DNA from: Escherichia phage N2
Sequence record: ON645936.1
Length of the DNA: 64,000 bases
Strand: one strand, 5' to 3'
Numbering within the stretch: the stretch's first letter is position 1; each line of letters opens with the position of its first letter. This document shows positions 1 to 55,040 of this stretch, piece after piece. The translations under genes and the position numbers were made by a program. Under the pieces are notes generated by a model, which was given only the letters and a program-made list of their open reading frames with translations, made no database searches and was not told the origin of the DNA.

Positions 1-2925
<2,925 letters not shown>

Positions 2926-2953
2926 TATTAAAGCATATTAAAGAGGATTAAAA

Positions 2954-4933
2954 ATGACTTTATTATCTCCGGGCATTGAGCTCAAAGAAACTACGGTTCA
3001 AAGCACTGTGGTTAATAACTCTACTGGTACAGCAGCTTTGGCCGGTAAATTCCAGTGGGGTCCTGCTTTTCAGATCAAACAGGTTACAAATGAAGTAGAT
3101 TTAGTTAATACTTTTGGTCAACCTACAGCTGAAACTGCTGATTATTTTATGTCTGCAATGAATTTCTTACAATATGGAAATGATTTGCGAGTTGTGCGTG
3201 CTGTCGATAGAGATACCGCTAAAAACTCATCTCCGATTGCTGGTAATATTGAATACACTATTTCTACCCCAGGTAGTAACTACGCGGTTGGAGATAAAAT
3301 CACAGTTAAGTATGTTTCAGAAGACATTGAAACGGAAGGTAAAATTACCGAAGTAGATGCTGATGGAAAAATTAAGAAAATTAATATTCCTACCGCAAAA
3401 ATTATCGCTAAAGCGAAAGAAGTCGGTGAATATCCAGCATTAGGTTCTAACTGGACCGCGGAAATTTCTTCGTCTTCCTCTGGTTTAGCTGCAGTAATAA
3501 CTCTTGGAAAAATTATTACTGATTCTGGTATTTTATTAGCTGAGATTGAAAATGCTGAAGCTGCTATGACAGCAGTTGAATTTCAAACAAATCTCGAAAA
3601 ATATGGAATTCCAGGAGTAGTAGCTCTTTATCCAGGCGAGTTGGGCGATAAAATCGAAATCGAAATCGTATCTAAAGCTGACTACGCAAAAGGAGCTTCT
3701 GCATTACTCCCAATTTATCCAGGTGGCGGAACACGCGCATCTACTGCTAAGGCAGTGTTTGGATATGGACCACAAACTGATTCACAATATGCTATTATAG
3801 TTCGCCGTAATGATGCTATTGTTCAAAGTATTGTTCTTTCAACAAAGCGTGGTGAAAAAGACATTTATGACAGTAACATCTATATTGATGACTTTTTCGC
3901 AAAAGGCGGTTCAGAATATATTTTCGCAACTGCACAAAACTGGCCAGAAGGCTTCTCCGGAATTTTAACTCTGTCTGGTGGATTATCATCAAATGCTGAA
4001 GTAACAGCAGGAGATTTGATGGAAGCCTGGGACTTCTTTGCTGACCGTGAATCTGTTGACGTTCAGTTGTTTATTGCGGGTTCTTGCGCCGGCGAATCTT
4101 TAGAAACAGCATCTACTGTCCAAAAACACGTCGTTTCAATTGGGGATGCTCGCCAAGATTGCTTAGTATTGTGCTCACCACCGCGTGAAACTGTAGTTGG
4201 AATTCCTGTAACTCGTGCTGTTGATAACTTAGTCAATTGGAGAACTGCAGCAGGTTCATACACCGATAATAACTTTAATATCAGTTCAACCTACGCAGCA
4301 ATTGATGGTAACTACAAGTATCAGTATGACAAATATAATGATGTGAATCGTTGGGTTCCATTAGCAGCTGATATTGCCGGTTTATGTGCAAGAACCGATA
4401 ACGTTTCTCAGACTTGGATGTCTCCAGCTGGTTATAATCGCGGCCAGATTCTTAACGTTATTAAACTTGCTATTGAAACTCGCCAGGCGCAGCGCGATCG
4501 TTTATACCAAGAAGCTATCAACCCGGTAACCGGTACAGGTGGTGATGGTTACGTATTGTATGGTGATAAAACAGCTACTTCTGTTCCTTCTCCATTTGAT
4601 CGTATTAACGTTCGTCGTCTGTTTAATATGCTGAAAACGAATATCGGACGTAGTTCAAAATATCGTTTGTTCGAATTAAACAACGCGTTTACTCGTTCAT
4701 CATTCCGCACAGAAACTGCCCAATACTTACAGGGAATTAAAGCTCTCGGTGGAATTTATGAATATCGTGTAGTTTGCGATACAACAAATAACACTCCGTC
4801 AGTAATTGATAGAAATGAGTTTGTTGCAACATTCTACATCCAACCGGCTCGTAGTATAAATTATATCCAACTTAATTTCGTCGCAACTGCTACTGGTGCA
4901 GATTTCGATGAGTTAACTGGTCTTGCAGGTTAA
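2954..4933 (+). CDS. 18: tail sheath protein gp18
   Basis: 659-aa ORF matching T4 gp18 length and N-terminus; preceded by TATAAATA late promoter. Confidence 0.95.
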   Translation: MTLLSPGIELKETTVQSTVVNNSTGTAALAGKFQWGPAFQIKQVTNEVDLVNTFGQPTAETADYFMSAMNFLQYGNDLRVVRAVDRDTAKNSSPIAGNIEYTISTPGSNYAVGDKITVKYVSEDIETEGKITEVDADGKIKKINIPTAKIIAKAKEVGEYPALGSNWTAEISSSSSGLAAVITLGKIITDSGILLAEIENAEAAMTAVEFQTNLEKYGIPGVVALYPGELGDKIEIEIVSKADYAKGASALLPIYPGGGTRASTAKAVFGYGPQTDSQYAIIVRRNDAIVQSIVLSTKRGEKDIYDSNIYIDDFFAKGGSEYIFATAQNWPEGFSGILTLSGGLSSNAEVTAGDLMEAWDFFADRESVDVQLFIAGSCAGESLETASTVQKHVVSIGDARQDCLVLCSPPRETVVGIPVTRAVDNLVNWRTAAGSYTDNNFNISSTYAAIDGNYKYQYDKYNDVNRWVPLAADIAGLCARTDNVSQTWMSPAGYNRGQILNVIKLAIETRQAQRDRLYQEAINPVTGTGGDGYVLYGDKTATSVPSPFDRINVRRLFNMLKTNIGRSSKYRLFELNNAFTRSSFRTETAQYLQGIKALGGIYEYRVVCDTTNNTPSVIDRNEFVATFYIQPARSINYIQLNFVATATGADFDELTGLAG

Positions 4934-26560: not shown

Positions 26561-26564
26561 CAAT

Positions 26565-26590
26565 GGGGACCTTTCGGTCCCCATATTTTT
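26565..26590. terminator. bidirectional terminator between gene 54 and the minus-strand early block
   Basis: GGGGACC-UUUC-GGUCCCC followed by T-rich run. Confidence 0.65.
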
Positions 26591-26879
26591 ATTTACGGAA
26601 TGAAATAAAAGCAGCAACTGAAGCAACTAAACTGTCTTCAATATAAACTTCAATTTTTACCGGAGCTTCTGACTCAAATTTACCTGTTACTACACCTTGG
26701 AAAATGCTTTCAGTCTGCTCTGGCTTTGAAAAATTTTCAGAAGGAAAAATTCCGAACTTTTTATCTGTTCCAAAAATTTTGATAAATTCATCATAAACTG
26801 CTTCATTAAAAGCATTATCAGCAGGAATAACGCCTTCAACTACAAGTTCTTGACCTAAAAAGCGCAAAGAAGATTTCAT
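26589..26879 (-). CDS. hypothetical protein (alt.-3-like position)
   Basis: 96-aa ORF with GAGGA SD; early promoter upstream. Confidence 0.6.
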   Translation of the reverse strand: MKSSLRFLGQELVVEGVIPADNAFNEAVYDEFIKIFGTDKKFGIFPSENFSKPEQTESIFQGVVTGKFESEAPVKIEVYIEDSLVASVAAFISFRK

Positions 26880-26910
26880 TTTATGTTCCTCATGTTATGT
26901 CAGTAAATCT

Positions 26911-26940
26911 ACTATAACACAACACGAGGGACTTGTAAAC
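26911..26940 (-). promoter_or_regulatory. early promoter (-35 GTTTAC, 17-nt spacer, -10 TATAGT)
   Basis: Motifs on minus strand upstream of ORF 26589..26879. Confidence 0.55.
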
Positions 26941-27298
26941 TACATTTTGAACTTTTTAGTACGCGTAATAGGCATGCGTCGATTTTATACTGTTTCATTG
27001 TTTGAAGAGCAGTATCAAAAACCGCATTAATGACACCAATTGGATTTCCACCCAAGTTTTTAAGTTTAACTAATGATAGTTTCTCATTAACACCTATCAT
27101 TACGATATGCATCATTTTATCGCCTGGCTTAACGTTTTTATTTGTATCACCGCCAGAGGTGTATGTACAAAATCTAAATCCAGGAAGCACGCTTTCTTCG
27201 CCGGCTTGAATAGCAAAAATTTGAGGTATTTTATGCTTAGGATTTAAGTTAACAACCGGCGCCGAAGCGCCGTCAAATAATTCTGTAATAAGTTCCAT
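26912..27298 (-). CDS. paralog of the Alt N-terminal domain
   Basis: 128-aa ORF whose sequence parallels Alt residues 2-125 (MELITELFD..NLNPK.KIPQIF..C.YTSGGDTN..GDKMMHIV..MRQYKIDAC). Confidence 0.7.
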   Translation of the reverse strand: MELITELFDGASAPVVNLNPKHKIPQIFAIQAGEESVLPGFRFCTYTSGGDTNKNVKPGDKMMHIVMIGVNEKLSLVKLKNLGGNPIGVINAVFDTALQTMKQYKIDACLLRVLKSSKCSLQVPRVVL

Positions 27299-27301
27299 GA
27301 T

Positions 27302-29398
27302 TTATCCTTGAACGAACTTGTAAGGCATGTTTGTAATATCTATGCAAGACGCAATAATTCCGAGAGATGATTCTGCTTTCTGTTTAACATTTGATGAAAC
27401 AAATGATGCAAAGTCAACTCTGTCTTCTATTTCAATATCACCTGTCATTGCAACTACTTCGCCGGTTTCCATTAGACGGTCACCGTCATAAATTACTGAT
27501 TCGGTGAGTTCTTCCGTAGTCATAACTTCGGCTTGAATGAGTTTTGTATTATTAAATGTTATTCCGTCATTATTAGAAGCATCAGTTATTTTGTTAACTT
27601 TGACCATCAATCCGCGCGGTAGAATAACTTCAGCTTCTGATGCTATTCCGAGACTTCCTGGATATACAACATTAACTTTATGAGCTCCATCAATTGCCCA
27701 TCCTATTTGAACTTTAACATATTCAGGATTTTCTTTATACGCTCTTATTTCGCTTGGATTAATAGTTATTCCTTCTTCATTTTTATCAACCGTTAATTCA
27801 TTGCGAGCTTCTGGTTCTAAAAGACCGATACCAGCATGTGTAATTCCAAAACGTCCAAAAATGATAGGAGTTAAAGAAGTAGATACAAAATTTCTGAAAT
27901 AGAACACTTTATTTTTAACTAGTGCTTCGTATATAGGAGCAGTCATACTTTGAGCACGATAAACTGTAATGCCTTCTGGTATACGGTCACCATTTTCAAA
28001 GGCTGAATCTAAATTATTTATCGCAGATTCAATTTCTTTTTCACTCATTACCTCATATCGTTCTGGATTGTAGCGGCCTAAAAGAAGATTATTGATGTCA
28101 GTATATCCTGCTCCACAATACTCTCTAATGCCGCGCTTTTGTGATGGAGTATATTTAGAACCATCACGGGCAATAGTAATATCAATCATTGGACCTGCAC
28201 CAACTCCAGAAAAACTATAAATCATTCGTTTGAGGAATACAGTTTTTGCTGCGTTCCAGGAATTTTTAGTTATTTCTTCCCAGACTTCATCTGACTGTCC
28301 TTTGCGGGTTTTATTATGTGTATCAAGCCAATTATCTTTATATTCTTCAAAGAATTGATTAACAGCTGCTGCGTATTTCTCTAAACATTTTATTGAAGTA
28401 GTTGGTTCATTTTTGATCGCATTAAGAATTACATCTTTAATTTTTTCAGAAACCTCATCAACCTCACTTTTTGAAACGAATTTATAGTAATGGCGAAGTT
28501 CATTTGTAGTTCCTTCGGCAATAATTTTTGCTGCCTTAGTTTTAGAAGCTAATGAATTAATTCCAAGCTTCATTTCTTCTGCTTCGGGAATTAAAGGAGC
28601 GGTAGCAGGTTTATTAAAATTGGCTGCGGTAGATTCATACTTCTGGAATAATTCGCTTTCAAATCTAGAAGATTCTAATGATTGACTTTGTGCAATTGCT
28701 CTACGGGAAATTTTAACTTTAACGATTACAGCTTGGTCAGAACGTTTATCATTTTCTTGCGCAATAGATGCTGCAATTGCCTCATTTTTAGTTACTTGAG
28801 CTCCAGTATCTTTGTTGATATAAACATCGCCGACCTTCGATTCAACTTTAGTAAAGAGCTCGGTACTAATTTCCGGAACTCCTGGAATGTCTTCTAATGA
28901 TACATTTTTGCGATGTATAAGAATATATGCATACTTTTTATCGTAATCCCAGATTTCCTTAAGAAGGACGTATCTGCCACCTGAACGACTACGGATAAGT
29001 CTATCAGCAATAACTTGAATTTGTCGAGCTTGACCAGCAGTTTTAGACTTAAGAATACGAAGCATACAAGCATCAATTTTATACTGGCGCATCGTCTGCA
29101 TTGCAACAGTAAAAACTGAATTGATATAATTAATTGGGCTTGGACCGAGACCTTTTAATTTAGCAATTGAACCTTTAGCAGTTAATGTAAAAGGAACAAT
29201 ATGCATCATTTTATCGCCCATCTTTAAATCACGGTTAGTATCACCTCCAGATGTATAGGTACATAAACGAAAGCCCGGTTGTTCAATTGCATCATCAACA
29301 TGAACTGAAAAAATTTGTGGTATTTTCTTCTTTGGATTTAAGTTTGTAATCGGAAGAGTAGTATCTTCGTCAAATAATTCTGTAATAAGTTCCATCAT
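27302..29398 (-). CDS. alt: Alt ADP-ribosyltransferase (packaged into the head)
   Basis: 698-aa ORF, T4 Alt-like; TATAAATA late promoter upstream on minus strand. Confidence 0.9.
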   Translation of the reverse strand: MMELITELFDEDTTLPITNLNPKKKIPQIFSVHVDDAIEQPGFRLCTYTSGGDTNRDLKMGDKMMHIVPFTLTAKGSIAKLKGLGPSPINYINSVFTVAMQTMRQYKIDACMLRILKSKTAGQARQIQVIADRLIRSRSGGRYVLLKEIWDYDKKYAYILIHRKNVSLEDIPGVPEISTELFTKVESKVGDVYINKDTGAQVTKNEAIAASIAQENDKRSDQAVIVKVKISRRAIAQSQSLESSRFESELFQKYESTAANFNKPATAPLIPEAEEMKLGINSLASKTKAAKIIAEGTTNELRHYYKFVSKSEVDEVSEKIKDVILNAIKNEPTTSIKCLEKYAAAVNQFFEEYKDNWLDTHNKTRKGQSDEVWEEITKNSWNAAKTVFLKRMIYSFSGVGAGPMIDITIARDGSKYTPSQKRGIREYCGAGYTDINNLLLGRYNPERYEVMSEKEIESAINNLDSAFENGDRIPEGITVYRAQSMTAPIYEALVKNKVFYFRNFVSTSLTPIIFGRFGITHAGIGLLEPEARNELTVDKNEEGITINPSEIRAYKENPEYVKVQIGWAIDGAHKVNVVYPGSLGIASEAEVILPRGLMVKVNKITDASNNDGITFNNTKLIQAEVMTTEELTESVIYDGDRLMETGEVVAMTGDIEIEDRVDFASFVSSNVKQKAESSLGIIASCIDITNMPYKFVQG

Positions 29399-29418: not shown

Positions 29419-29426
29419 TATTTATA
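29419..29426 (-). promoter_or_regulatory. late promoter TATAAATA on minus strand (alt)
   Basis: Reverse complement of TATTTATA about 20 nt upstream of alt ATG. Confidence 0.65.
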
Positions 29427-33830: not shown

Positions 33831-34163
33831 TTATTTTACTACTTTCCAATGCTGCATGTCAAGTTTACCAACTTTTTTCATCTTCTCAATTAAGCGTTCG
33901 GCACGTTGGCGAGCTGTAACATAATGCCATTCGCCTAATTCATTTTGTTCAATTTTTCCAACGATTACTGTATTCAATTCATAAATCCAACCAGTAAAGA
34001 AATTATGAACTTGGATTGCAAAGGTGAAATCTGTTCCCATACCTTCTGTTGTTTCTACTTCAATAATATCACCTTCAACTGCCATTAAGAACCACATAGT
34101 TTCATCATATTTACCATTGAAGCATTTAGTTTTAACTGTAGCGTTCAGATTAATCGTTTTCAT
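33831..34163 (-). CDS. hypothetical protein
   Basis: 110-aa ORF; early promoter and SD upstream. Confidence 0.55.
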   Translation of the reverse strand: MKTINLNATVKTKCFNGKYDETMWFLMAVEGDIIEVETTEGMGTDFTFAIQVHNFFTGWIYELNTVIVGKIEQNELGEWHYVTARQRAERLIEKMKKVGKLDMQHWKVVK

Positions 34164-39722: not shown

Positions 39723-40072
39723 TTAGAAAGGTCCTGGATGTCTTCTGCGAACTTGTTGAAGGAGTTGTTGATTTGTTTTTCAACCAATCCTGGCTTATGA
39801 GCCACCACATCCGCCTTCTTTGCGTCTTTGCGCAGTTTTTCATTTTCACGCTCAATAGCAGCAATTGCCTCACGATTTTTATTATTCATCGCATCAATAT
39901 AATTATACTGAATTCGCAAATTATCTAATGCTAAAGCGTTTTCATTGGCTGTTTTTGTAATTTCAGTAACCGATGTTTCTAATCTTTCTACCTTATTTTT
40001 TAAAATAATAGATGTTCCGCCAAATGCTATTACAAGTAATAGCAATCCAGCTGTAAAATTACTTACATGCAT
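39719..40072 (-). CDS. putative inner-membrane spanin (i-spanin, T4 pseT.3-like)
   Basis: N-terminal transmembrane segment GLLLLVIAFGGTSIIL followed by charged coiled-coil-like region; precedes lipoprotein gene. Confidence 0.65.
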   Translation of the reverse strand: MHVSNFTAGLLLLVIAFGGTSIILKNKVERLETSVTEITKTANENALALDNLRIQYNYIDAMNNKNREAIAAIERENEKLRKDAKKADVVAHKPGLVEKQINNSFNKFAEDIQDLSK

Positions 40073-40569
40073 AAAGTTTTAATAACCTCTACAATATCGT
40101 CTTGAGAAAGACCGTTAATTAAAATATGATGTTCAGCCGGAGATTTAGAAATTTTAAAGCATGCCTCAACATCTTCTGCCATATCTGATGCGCTACGATT
40201 TGGATTACTAATTCCAAGACGATGTTTTCCCGTCAAAGGATTAACGATGATGTAGCATTTACAATTATTGATATGAACATTAGGTTGAGTCTGATTAATG
40301 AACACATCACAATCATATTTCGCAAGCTGATTTTCTAAAAAGACTTTCATCTCCTCAACCGCATCAGGAAGCATATCACGGGCTTGCTCAAGACGACGAT
40401 TTCGATATTCTTTAATGGTCGTTTTCCGCTTGACTTGCTTAGCTAAATCTTTCTTAAGATCGGTGATATATCCAACTCGACGATTTCCTTTGAATACAGA
40501 AATCCCATCTGTAGTATCACCATATGCTTCAACGACCATTTCAGTAGTAATAAGCTGTAAATCCATCAT
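40063..40569 (-). CDS. alc: Alc-like protein (inhibitor of host transcription on cytosine DNA)
   Basis: 168-aa ORF between the pseT cluster and rnlA as in T4; early promoter immediately upstream. Confidence 0.7.
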   Translation of the reverse strand: MMDLQLITTEMVVEAYGDTTDGISVFKGNRRVGYITDLKKDLAKQVKRKTTIKEYRNRRLEQARDMLPDAVEEMKVFLENQLAKYDCDVFINQTQPNVHINNCKCYIIVNPLTGKHRLGISNPNRSASDMAEDVEACFKISKSPAEHHILINGLSQDDIVEVIKTLCM

Positions 40570-40597
40570 AAAGTCCTCATGTTATGTCAGTAAAATT

Positions 40598-40627
40598 ACT
40601 ATAACACAACACGAGGGACTTGTAAAC
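40598..40627 (-). promoter_or_regulatory. early promoter (-35 GTTTAC, -10 TATAGT) upstream of alc
   Basis: Near-identical copy of the 26911..26940 promoter. Confidence 0.55.
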
Positions 40628-40630
40628 AGC

Positions 40631-42218
<1,588 letters not shown>

Positions 42219-48653: not shown

Positions 48654-48907
48654 CATTATGTTCAGATAAGGTCGTTAATCTTATCCCGGAATTATATCCA
48701 GCTGCATGTCACCATACAGATCAGACTATATCTCCATCTTGATGAAGCAAGATGTCTATCGTTTCGAGTCACTTGACCCTACTCCCCAAAGGGATAGTCG
48801 TTAGGCATTTAGTTCAAAAGAACATTTAGCACGGGATTGTCTACTAGAGAGGTTCCCCGTTTAGATAGATTACAAGTATAAGTCACCTTATACTCAGGCC
48901 TCAATTA
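48654..48907 (-). ncRNA. group I self-splicing intron in td, ORF-less (about 254 nt)
   Basis: Starts UAAUUGAGGCCUGAGUAUAAGGUGACUUAUACUUGUAAUCUAUCUAAACGGGGAACC after exon-1 ...CUUGGGU, ends ...CUGAACAUAAUG before exon 2, matching remembered T4 td intron ends. Confidence 0.85.
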
Positions 48908-49456
48908 ACCCAAGAACACGTCAACACTTCTTTGATACCACTGCAAATCCAAATAGCCATTACGCACATTAAACTGATAGAACATATGACAAGGCGGTAA
49001 TGCCATTTGCTTGAGTTCAGCTGGATTCCATGCAGAAACAACTTGACGTCTATCATTTGGCAGTTTTTTAATACGATCAATAACTTCTACAATTTGGTCT
49101 ACACCACCAAAATCACGCCACTGTTTTCCATAAATTGGACCAAGTTCACCACTATGATATCCTAAATCTTTTGCTTGATTTTCGTAATTTTCATCCCAGA
49201 CTGTTTTGCCTTGAATTAATGAATCGTGTTGAATTAATCGTAAATCATTGACATTTGTGCTTCCTGATAAAAACCAAAGTAGCTCAGCAATGCAAGCTTT
49301 CCAGGCGAGCTTCTTAGTTGTTACTGCAGGAAAACCTTTAGTTAAATCCCAGCGTAATTTAGTACCGAACAAAGCAATTGTTCCTGTGCCTGTTCGGTCA
49401 TCAGTTTCATAGCCATTTTCAAAAATGTCTTTAATTAAATCTTGGTATTGTTTCAT
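48908..49456 (-). CDS. td: thymidylate synthase, exon 1
   Basis: 183 codons ending ...QRSVDVFLG, followed by in-frame UAA at intron start. Confidence 0.9.
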
Positions 49457-54978: not shown

Positions 54979-55040
54979 ATGAACCTCGTTCAATTAGTGA
55001 GATTTCTATTATATACCATCCAAATCTTAAAGTAAACAAG

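Follow-up and report, generated by a model that had tools for sequence, protein, structure and literature searches.

A promoter shared by alc and alt.-3 of T4-like phages lies within a predicted RNA hairpin that probably masks the ribosome-binding site

Introduction

Why should a T4-like phage carry one and the same short promoter and leader in front of two genes that lie 13.7 kb apart? The question is raised by a stretch of 64,000 nucleotides of Escherichia phage N2 (sequence record ON645936.1), which was analysed at its full length and is called the window below. The window belongs to a Tequatrovirus closest to the record of phage SYGD1, and it is collinear with T4. An earlier note had pointed to a near-identical early promoter and leader present twice in this DNA, and had proposed the duplication of a regulatory cassette or a recombination hotspot. 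The genes concerned are alc and alt.-3. Alc is an inhibitor of host transcription. Mutations in Alt.-3 can overcome the CmdTAC defence system (PMC11618068). Because of these roles, it is of practical interest how strictly the two proteins are limited to the opening minutes of infection.

Two near-identical copies of a 54-bp promoter cassette

Both copies were found. Read on the minus strand, the cassette is GTTTACAAGTCCCTCGTGTTGTGTTATAGTA[GA/AT]TTTACTGACATAACATGAGGA, and it occupies 26887-26940 (copy A, directly 5' of alt.-3) and 40574-40627 (copy B, directly 5' of alc), with 13,687 bp from start to start. Position p of its 54 bp corresponds to 26940-(p-1) in copy A and to 40627-(p-1) in copy B. 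The earlier note had the places right; its coordinates have to be taken on the minus strand, they are slightly too wide, as they take in flanking bases that have diverged, and the differing positions, estimated there at about four, number 2 of 54, leaving 52/54 identical. The identity runs from the first base of the -35 GTTTAC to the last base of GAGGA, and the flanks are unrelated. T4 carries both copies, 53/54 identical to one another; copy A has an orthologous copy in T4 and RB3, and copy B in T4. The copies are direct repeats flanking an interval with genes 30, 31, cd and pseT, and no third copy was found in the window with up to 3 mismatches allowed.

Each copy contains a -35, a spacer, a -10, a leader and a Shine-Dalgarno (SD) sequence, as had been described. 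The -35 is the exact hexamer GTTTAC (26935-26940 in copy A and 40622-40627 in copy B, minus strand), the -10 is TATAGT (26911-26916 and 40598-40603, minus strand) preceded by TGT, i.e. a TGn-extended -10, and the spacer between them is 18 bp counted from GTTTAC or 17 bp counted from TTTACA. These features are those of a T4-type early promoter (Pe). The DNA upstream of the -35 is A-rich in copy A (AAAAAGTTCAAAATGTA); in copy B it is the end of rnlA (CCCAGAAGGATACTAAGCT) and is not markedly A/T-rich. Judging from the promoter geometry, transcription would start around position 37, about 7 nt past the -10.

The cassettes are like ordinary T4 Pe in their GTTTAC, their TGn-extended -10, a similar start region and the early appearance of the RNA and protein of their genes in T4. 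However, ordinary Pe have the consensus alone in common, whereas the two cassettes also share the whole spacer and leader. The spacer AAGTCCCTCGTGTTGTG and the leader TGACATAACATGAGGA are the same in both copies and unlike those of every other early promoter in the window; other early-type promoters (at 55037, 37634 and 33828, minus strand) have only GTTTAC and a TATAAT-like -10 in common with the cassette, and 100 dinucleotide shuffles of the window gave no match to it. Considering these two results, the similarity is not limited to the -35 and -10 hexamers, and the conservation exceeds a promoter consensus, as the earlier note had held. A likeness due to shared consensus or to chance can therefore be dismissed with near certainty, even though the extended consensus of T4 early promoters comprises an UP element, -35, TGn, -10 and start region (PMC2988021) and the segment TATAGTAGTCTTAC does resemble other early promoters.

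Gene context and timing of expression

Copy A serves alt.-3 (26589-26879, minus strand, 96 aa) and copy B serves alc (40063-40569, minus strand, 167/168 aa). Transcripts from upstream genes would enter both copies. Into copy B would read rnlA (RNA ligase 1; 40631-41755, minus strand), whose stop codon lies 3 nt 5' of the -35. Into copy A would read the late gene alt (ADP-ribosyltransferase; 27302-29398, minus strand), and a truncated alt paralog between them (26912-27298, minus strand; T4 alt.-1/alt.-2 region) has a frame that runs into the copy. A late-promoter motif TATAAATA just 5' of alt (29419-29426, minus strand) is a candidate source of late read-through into copy A, and no late promoter with this motif occurs in or beside either cassette. 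The terminator scan detected none between alt and copy A and none between rnlA and copy B; a bidirectional terminator-like hairpin (26563-26584), between alt.-3 and gene 54, ends the transcription unit. Just 5' of rnlA (41770-41803, minus strand) stands a MotA-box-like ATGCTTCC with, at a distance of about 13 nt, TACTAT with TGG; this motif is a candidate middle promoter, and an rnlA promoter is not among the T4 middle promoters of the published list.

In T4 omics data, RNA and protein of alt are late, alt.-1/alt.-2 RNA is middle and its protein not detected (NA), rnlA RNA is early and its protein late, and both alt.-3 and alc are early in RNA and in protein (PMC9697503). These timing classes agree with an active early promoter in each cassette.

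A predicted hairpin spans the promoter and the Shine-Dalgarno sequence

Reading the cassette as a promoter followed by a leader, as was done before, misses a predicted hairpin in which the spacer and -10 make up the 5' arm and the leader and SD the 3' arm. The predicted pairing joins positions 12-25 to 40-53 and positions 28-31 to 36-39, in total 18 bp. Its 5' side consists of the promoter spacer, beginning with CCUC, and of the TGn and -10 (positions 25-30); its 3' side consists of the leader and the SD GAGG (positions 50-53). In copy A the arms are CCTCGTGTTGTGTT (26916-26929, minus strand), with CCUC as the anti-SD, and GACATAACATGAGG (26888-26901, minus strand), with the SD at 26888-26891, and the -10 lies within the 5' half. 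The arms of copy B lie at 40603-40616 and 40575-40588 (minus strand), with the SD at 40575-40578, and here the helix reaches outward to positions 7-10, where AAGU pairs with ACUU. Spacer and leader would thus be conserved because they are the two arms of a hairpin that covers the -10 and the SD.

Folding of the 54-mer gave a minimum free energy of -22 kcal/mol, with a z-score of about -5.4 to -5.7 and none of 200 shuffles as stable, and the hairpin was retained in folding contexts of 81-250 nt. The predicted energies range from -22 to -28 kcal/mol. The stem, CCUCGUGUUGUGUU/GACAUAACAUGAGG, is A/U-rich and contains three G.U pairs. Because of these pairs the structure in Tequatrovirus is specific to the sense strand, which folds at -24 kcal/mol compared with -14.6 kcal/mol for the antisense strand, a gain of about 9 kcal/mol.

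The partition function was computed for read-through RNA of up to 250 nt and for the transcripts of the cassettes' own promoters. On read-through RNA the probability that the SD is unpaired is at most 0.008 for alc and at most 0.005 for alt.-3. On the alc transcript starting at positions 36-38 it is 0.33-0.77. For the alt.-3 transcript with the same starts it is only about 0.1, within a weak fold of -5 kcal/mol. A weak pairing of this leader with a downstream CUUCU persists, which counts against the model set out below.

No cassette matched a family of Rfam 15 at the gathering score. The window matched Rfam at one place alone, a group I intron (48702-48917, minus strand; RF00028, 72.6 bits). 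Inspection of the Tequatrovirus cassette sequence found no RegB site (GGAG).

Helices ending in the Shine-Dalgarno sequence recur at alc

Among 50,697 phage records searched with blastn, 499 contain the cassette, at 997 places in all and each time with at least 90.7% identity; it occurs twice per genome, always at alt.-3 and alc, and was not found outside close T4 relatives. The earlier suggestion of a duplicated cassette holds in so far as a regulatory cassette is repeated, but the event is neither recent nor local, as both loci are fixed for it in about 499 records. Homologues of Alc are present in 1,136 records, and in other genera the rnlA-alc spacer has an equal length and the same design with a different sequence.

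The alc loci were compared through 39 distinct cassettes from Tequatrovirus, Karamvirus, Gelderlandvirus, Jiaodavirus and Dhakavirus records and from unclassified IMG/VR relatives. In 31 of the 39, at least 3 of the 4 bases of the SD core are paired with the promoter spacer, and shuffled spacers almost never attain the observed pairing energy. In 30/39 an unbroken helix of at least 8 pairs has its end in the SD purine run; these make up 22 distinct helices, and several helix positions carry 3-4 pair types (e.g. TCTCCATTTGGTT/AACCAAATGGAGA, TCCTCATCAG/CTGATGAGGA and CCTCTCGTTTTTG/CAAAAACGAGAGG). These counts come from a per-sequence helix analysis anchored on the SD, which was used because a MAFFT alignment mis-registered the 3' arms between lineages; column-wise covariation on that alignment was set aside. 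The slid-partner control in the helix analysis is not independent, the helices having been selected. Across genera the sense strand does not generally fold better than the antisense strand (p = 0.13); the helices are mostly Watson-Crick there, which makes the test uninformative, and outside Tequatrovirus a role in the DNA is conceivable.

Within Tequatrovirus, the variation falls in the loop (positions 32-35) or mostly preserves the pairing, as do 13 C>U, 16 G>A (which turns a G.U into an A-U pair) and the joint substitutions 15 C>U and 50 G>A; stem substitutions are mostly transitions, which often keep pairing by chance. Pair-breaking changes in the stem were seen once per locus, namely 18 G>A at alt.-3 of RB18 and 40 G>U at alc of PV654517.

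The comparison suggests that the SD-masking design at alc is ancestral in T4-like phages. It is not universal. In the Tegunavirus-like and PEi20-like phages the alc hairpin lies over the -10 and ends before the SD, in the Mosig-like phages and in two others the alc hairpin is small and confined to the spacer, and the VR7-like phages have an extra ORF before alc, without a promoter there. Since some lineages do without masking at alc, it must be dispensable or replaceable. In the VR7-like phages the small ORF stands between rnlA and alc together with a strong terminator hairpin and no early promoter, and a short hairpin, GGTTCCATCA...TGATGAGGACC, nonetheless covers the alc SD.

Origin of the alt.-3 copy and exchange between the two loci

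About 17 genomes from outside Tequatrovirus allowed both loci to be read. These have the long SD-masking hairpin at alc. In front of alt.-3 they carry a different early promoter, which leaves the SD unmasked and forms a mini-hairpin of 4-6 bp in its spacer. This mini-hairpin is conserved, lies wholly inside the -35/-10 spacer with a loop of GGAA/GGAT type, and covaries (CCAC/GTGG, ACACA/TGTGT, TCCAC/GTGGA, CACAC/GTGTG, GCAC/GTGC). The bases just outside the Tequatrovirus cassette at alt.-3, TTCAAAATGTA-GTTTACAA... and ...ACATGAGGA, agree with the sequence found at alt.-3 in other genera. As the design precedes alc in other genera, where the alt.-3 promoter differs, the alc cassette was probably copied onto alt.-3 in an ancestor of Tequatrovirus. 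Ectopic recombination would have overwritten the inner ~40 bp of the alt.-3 promoter and leader.

The two loci were then compared in 11 Tequatrovirus genomes, which are related and hence non-independent, and which had been chosen for divergence. No fixed difference between the loci was found in these 11, and five polymorphisms occur with the same alleles at both (16 G/A, 27 T/C, 29 G/A, 32 G/A and 34 C/T). The sharing of alleles has a naive hypergeometric P of 4e-4. Copies of one genome differ at 2.09 positions on average against 2.86 for between-genome pairs (permutation p = 0.014), and orthologues, with 3.27 and 2.29 differences, are as divergent as the paralogs (2.09) or more so. The shared polymorphisms together with the lack of fixed differences indicate, as far as these sequences go, continuing gene conversion, and short tracts exchanged between alc and alt.-3 may still be homogenising the copies.

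Exchange is also visible in individual genomes. The alc and alt.-3 cassettes of IMG/VR genome 2706795356 are identical in their 3' halves, an independent exchange, and in the RB69-like phage F2 (4669-4765 and 19097-19193) both cassettes share GTTTACAAACAC... and ...ATCAAYAACACGAGGA, a partial exchange. The pair behaves like other cases of concerted evolution by ectopic conversion, with no fixed paralog differences, shared polymorphisms and a similarity within genomes at least as high as between them, but the tract is unlike them in being just 54 bp and purely regulatory, between flanks that are unrelated and have fixed differences. The pair would offer a clear example from nature of a regulatory module of 54 bp moved between loci 13.7 kb apart and then kept identical by gene conversion, which bears on how phage regulatory circuits are rewired.

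A promoter nested in a hairpin that would restrict translation to early transcripts

We consider it fairly probable that the cassette is an early promoter nested in an SD-masking RNA hairpin, and that the pair derives from alc and is kept alike by conversion. Polymerase starting at the cassette's own promoter would begin near position 37, 3' of the 5' arm, and would yield an mRNA with a free or weakly paired SD, which would be translated. Transcripts derived from upstream, i.e. late alt transcripts at copy A and rnlA-traversing transcripts at copy B, would hold both arms and form a helix of 18-22 bp in which the SD is buried. Read-through RNA thus probably has its ribosome-binding site hidden in the hairpin, and we propose that, with the SD buried in this way, alc and alt.-3 are made only while their early promoters fire. 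Strong covariation stands behind this mechanism, of which the translational block is a prediction. The timing of the proteins in T4 is what the model predicts and fits a block of this kind, although it is no proof of one.

The closest functional likeness is to the T4 genes e (lysozyme), soc, 49 and I-TevI, which have hairpins sequestering the ribosome-binding site with an internal promoter (PMC3014915). In those genes the SD lies in the 3' arm on long transcripts, initiation at the promoter within the structure gives a shorter, translated RNA without the 5' arm, and the timing of the protein is set by which promoter made the RNA. The cassette shares this arrangement: the SD is predicted to be paired in a stable helix on the longer transcript, and, with the -10 inside the 5' half, the geometry of the promoter gives an own transcript without the 5' arm. 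In e, soc, 49 and I-TevI, however, the internal promoter is late, and it is early or middle read-through RNA that is silenced; in the cassette the internal promoter is early and of sigma-70 type, and silencing would fall on middle or late read-through. With an early instead of a late internal promoter, the temporal logic is inverted. If the model is true, T4-like phages run the lysozyme-type trick in reverse, and a gene is translatable only from its own early promoter although it is later transcribed in middle and late operons.

The finding is real and non-random and is largely explained by known principles; it is an extension of known T4 biology and not a new kind of system. The searchable literature, whose coverage of the older T4 work is incomplete so that an earlier description is possible, contains no description of the alc/alt.-3 hairpin or of the identity of the two promoters.

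Other roles of the hairpin and of the repeat

The hairpin could act mainly on transcription or on RNA ends, as an attenuator, insulator or 3'-end stabiliser for rnlA or alt transcripts, with the SD merely lying inside it. Such a role has been proposed for the stem-loops of the PeSL (promoter-early stem-loop) cassettes, and in RB49/phi1 those lying over early promoters cut a downstream lacZ about as much as a strong terminator does (PMC2839356). Inverted repeats that cover the -10 and stop short of the SD at the early promoters 55037, 51007, 37634 and 33828 point the same way, as do the alc hairpins of the Tegunavirus-like and PEi20-like phages, which likewise end before the SD. Against this, neither cassette was flagged by the terminator scan, a U-tract is absent after the stem of copy A and copy B has only CUUUAU, and in 30/39 alc cassettes the end of the helix falls precisely in the SD purines and the anti-SD follows directly on the -35, neither of which a pure terminator needs. 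We regard a main role at RNA ends as unlikely, and the two roles are compatible and not mutually exclusive. An intrinsic terminator was rejected, as the tails (AACAUAAAAUG in copy A, CUUUAUGAUG in copy B) contain no U-tract and the scan was negative.

An inverted repeat over the -10 is present in 7 of the 8 strong early-promoter candidates of the window, which suggests a general T-even class of promoter plus hairpin. Most other strong early-type promoters have one (minus-strand -35s at 55037, 51007, 37634, 34220 and 33828). At promoter 34220, 5' of a homologue of 30.8 (33831-34163), the spacer TTCCTTTG also pairs with the SD CAAAGGAG. On a broader reading, repeats centred on the -10 would be general and selected in T-even early promoters, where they would act throughout the genome to make early genes early-only by silencing or insulating all read-through RNA, or would contribute in the DNA to the shut-off of early promoters; the cassette of alc and alt.-3 would be the extreme form, and conversion between promoters would spread the versions that succeed. 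We hold this reading to be rather improbable.

It is improbable, too, that the repeat serves above all for recombination, as a mobile regulatory cassette or PeSL-type linker whose significance lies in promoting deletions, duplications, mini-circles or module exchange. Sequence exchange between the alc and alt.-3 loci is evident, patches of less than 50 bp are all that T4 recombination needs according to Singer et al. 1982, as cited in PMC2839356, and shuffling through PeSL is documented in RB49/phi1 (PMC2839356). But copy number and places are fixed throughout the 499 records, and covariation conserves the hairpin at alc, a sign that it has some function itself. No genome examined shows a deletion or an inversion between the copies, or a rearrangement with a cassette at its junction; among 11 genomes there was no indel bordered by cassettes, and the spacing between the copies (13.2-15.8 kb across genomes) varies through unrelated indels only. 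Genes 30 and 31 are essential in T4 genetics. Excision of the interval that holds them together with cd and pseT should for this reason be lethal. Of the recombination hotspot that had been suggested, what stands is the short conversion tracts between the two loci, and the term applies in no other sense.

One deletion does lie close to copy A. The 128-aa ORF at 26912-27298 (minus strand) is the remnant of a second full-length alt paralog, alt.-2 (685 aa), which is intact in RB3 (2441-4498 of the sequence compared), T2, RB14, AR1 and RB18. The lineage of T4 and the window lost about 1.67 kb of it between two 9-bp direct repeats, CTAAAAAGT. The deletion ends in this repeat 21 bp 5' of the cassette and outside it, so that a cassette-mediated truncation is ruled out, the junction being a separate repeat. 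The T4 annotation describes the remnant as an 'old duplication of the first part of alt'.

The PeSL of RB49 and phi1 have T-even counterparts, called 'PeSL-like', at internal-protein loci (Arbiol et al. 2010, PMC2839356), which the authors of that study regard as analogues and not homologues. Like a PeSL, the cassette has an upstream stop codon, an early promoter, a stem-loop between or over the -35 and -10, and an SD and start codon 3' of it, and it is repeated within the genome as a substrate for homologous exchange. The differences are several. PeSL number about 50 per genome, in hyperplastic regions beside ORFans, whereas the cassette is present in exactly two copies at fixed loci, and one copy serves the conserved gene alc. 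PeSL stems are usually polyG/polyC (GGGG...CCCC), in contrast to the A/U-rich stem with G.U pairs found here. Finally, PeSL are tied to indels and mini-circles and the cassette is without associated rearrangements, and its stem, unlike theirs, specifically covers the SD.

The dyad might also act in the DNA, as a protein operator or an extrudable cruciform that co-regulates both promoters, for instance in early shut-off. It is centred on the -10, such dyads occur at most early-type promoters in the window, both strands fold about equally well outside Tequatrovirus, and the mechanism by which early promoters are shut off is reported to be unknown (PMC2988021). Nevertheless, the sequences of the arms differ between genera and their complementarity alone is conserved, which argues against a sequence-specific protein site. 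In Tequatrovirus, moreover, the three G.U pairs tie the structure to the sense strand, and the 3' arm tracks the SD, an RNA-level signal, and we judge a DNA-level site to be very unlikely.
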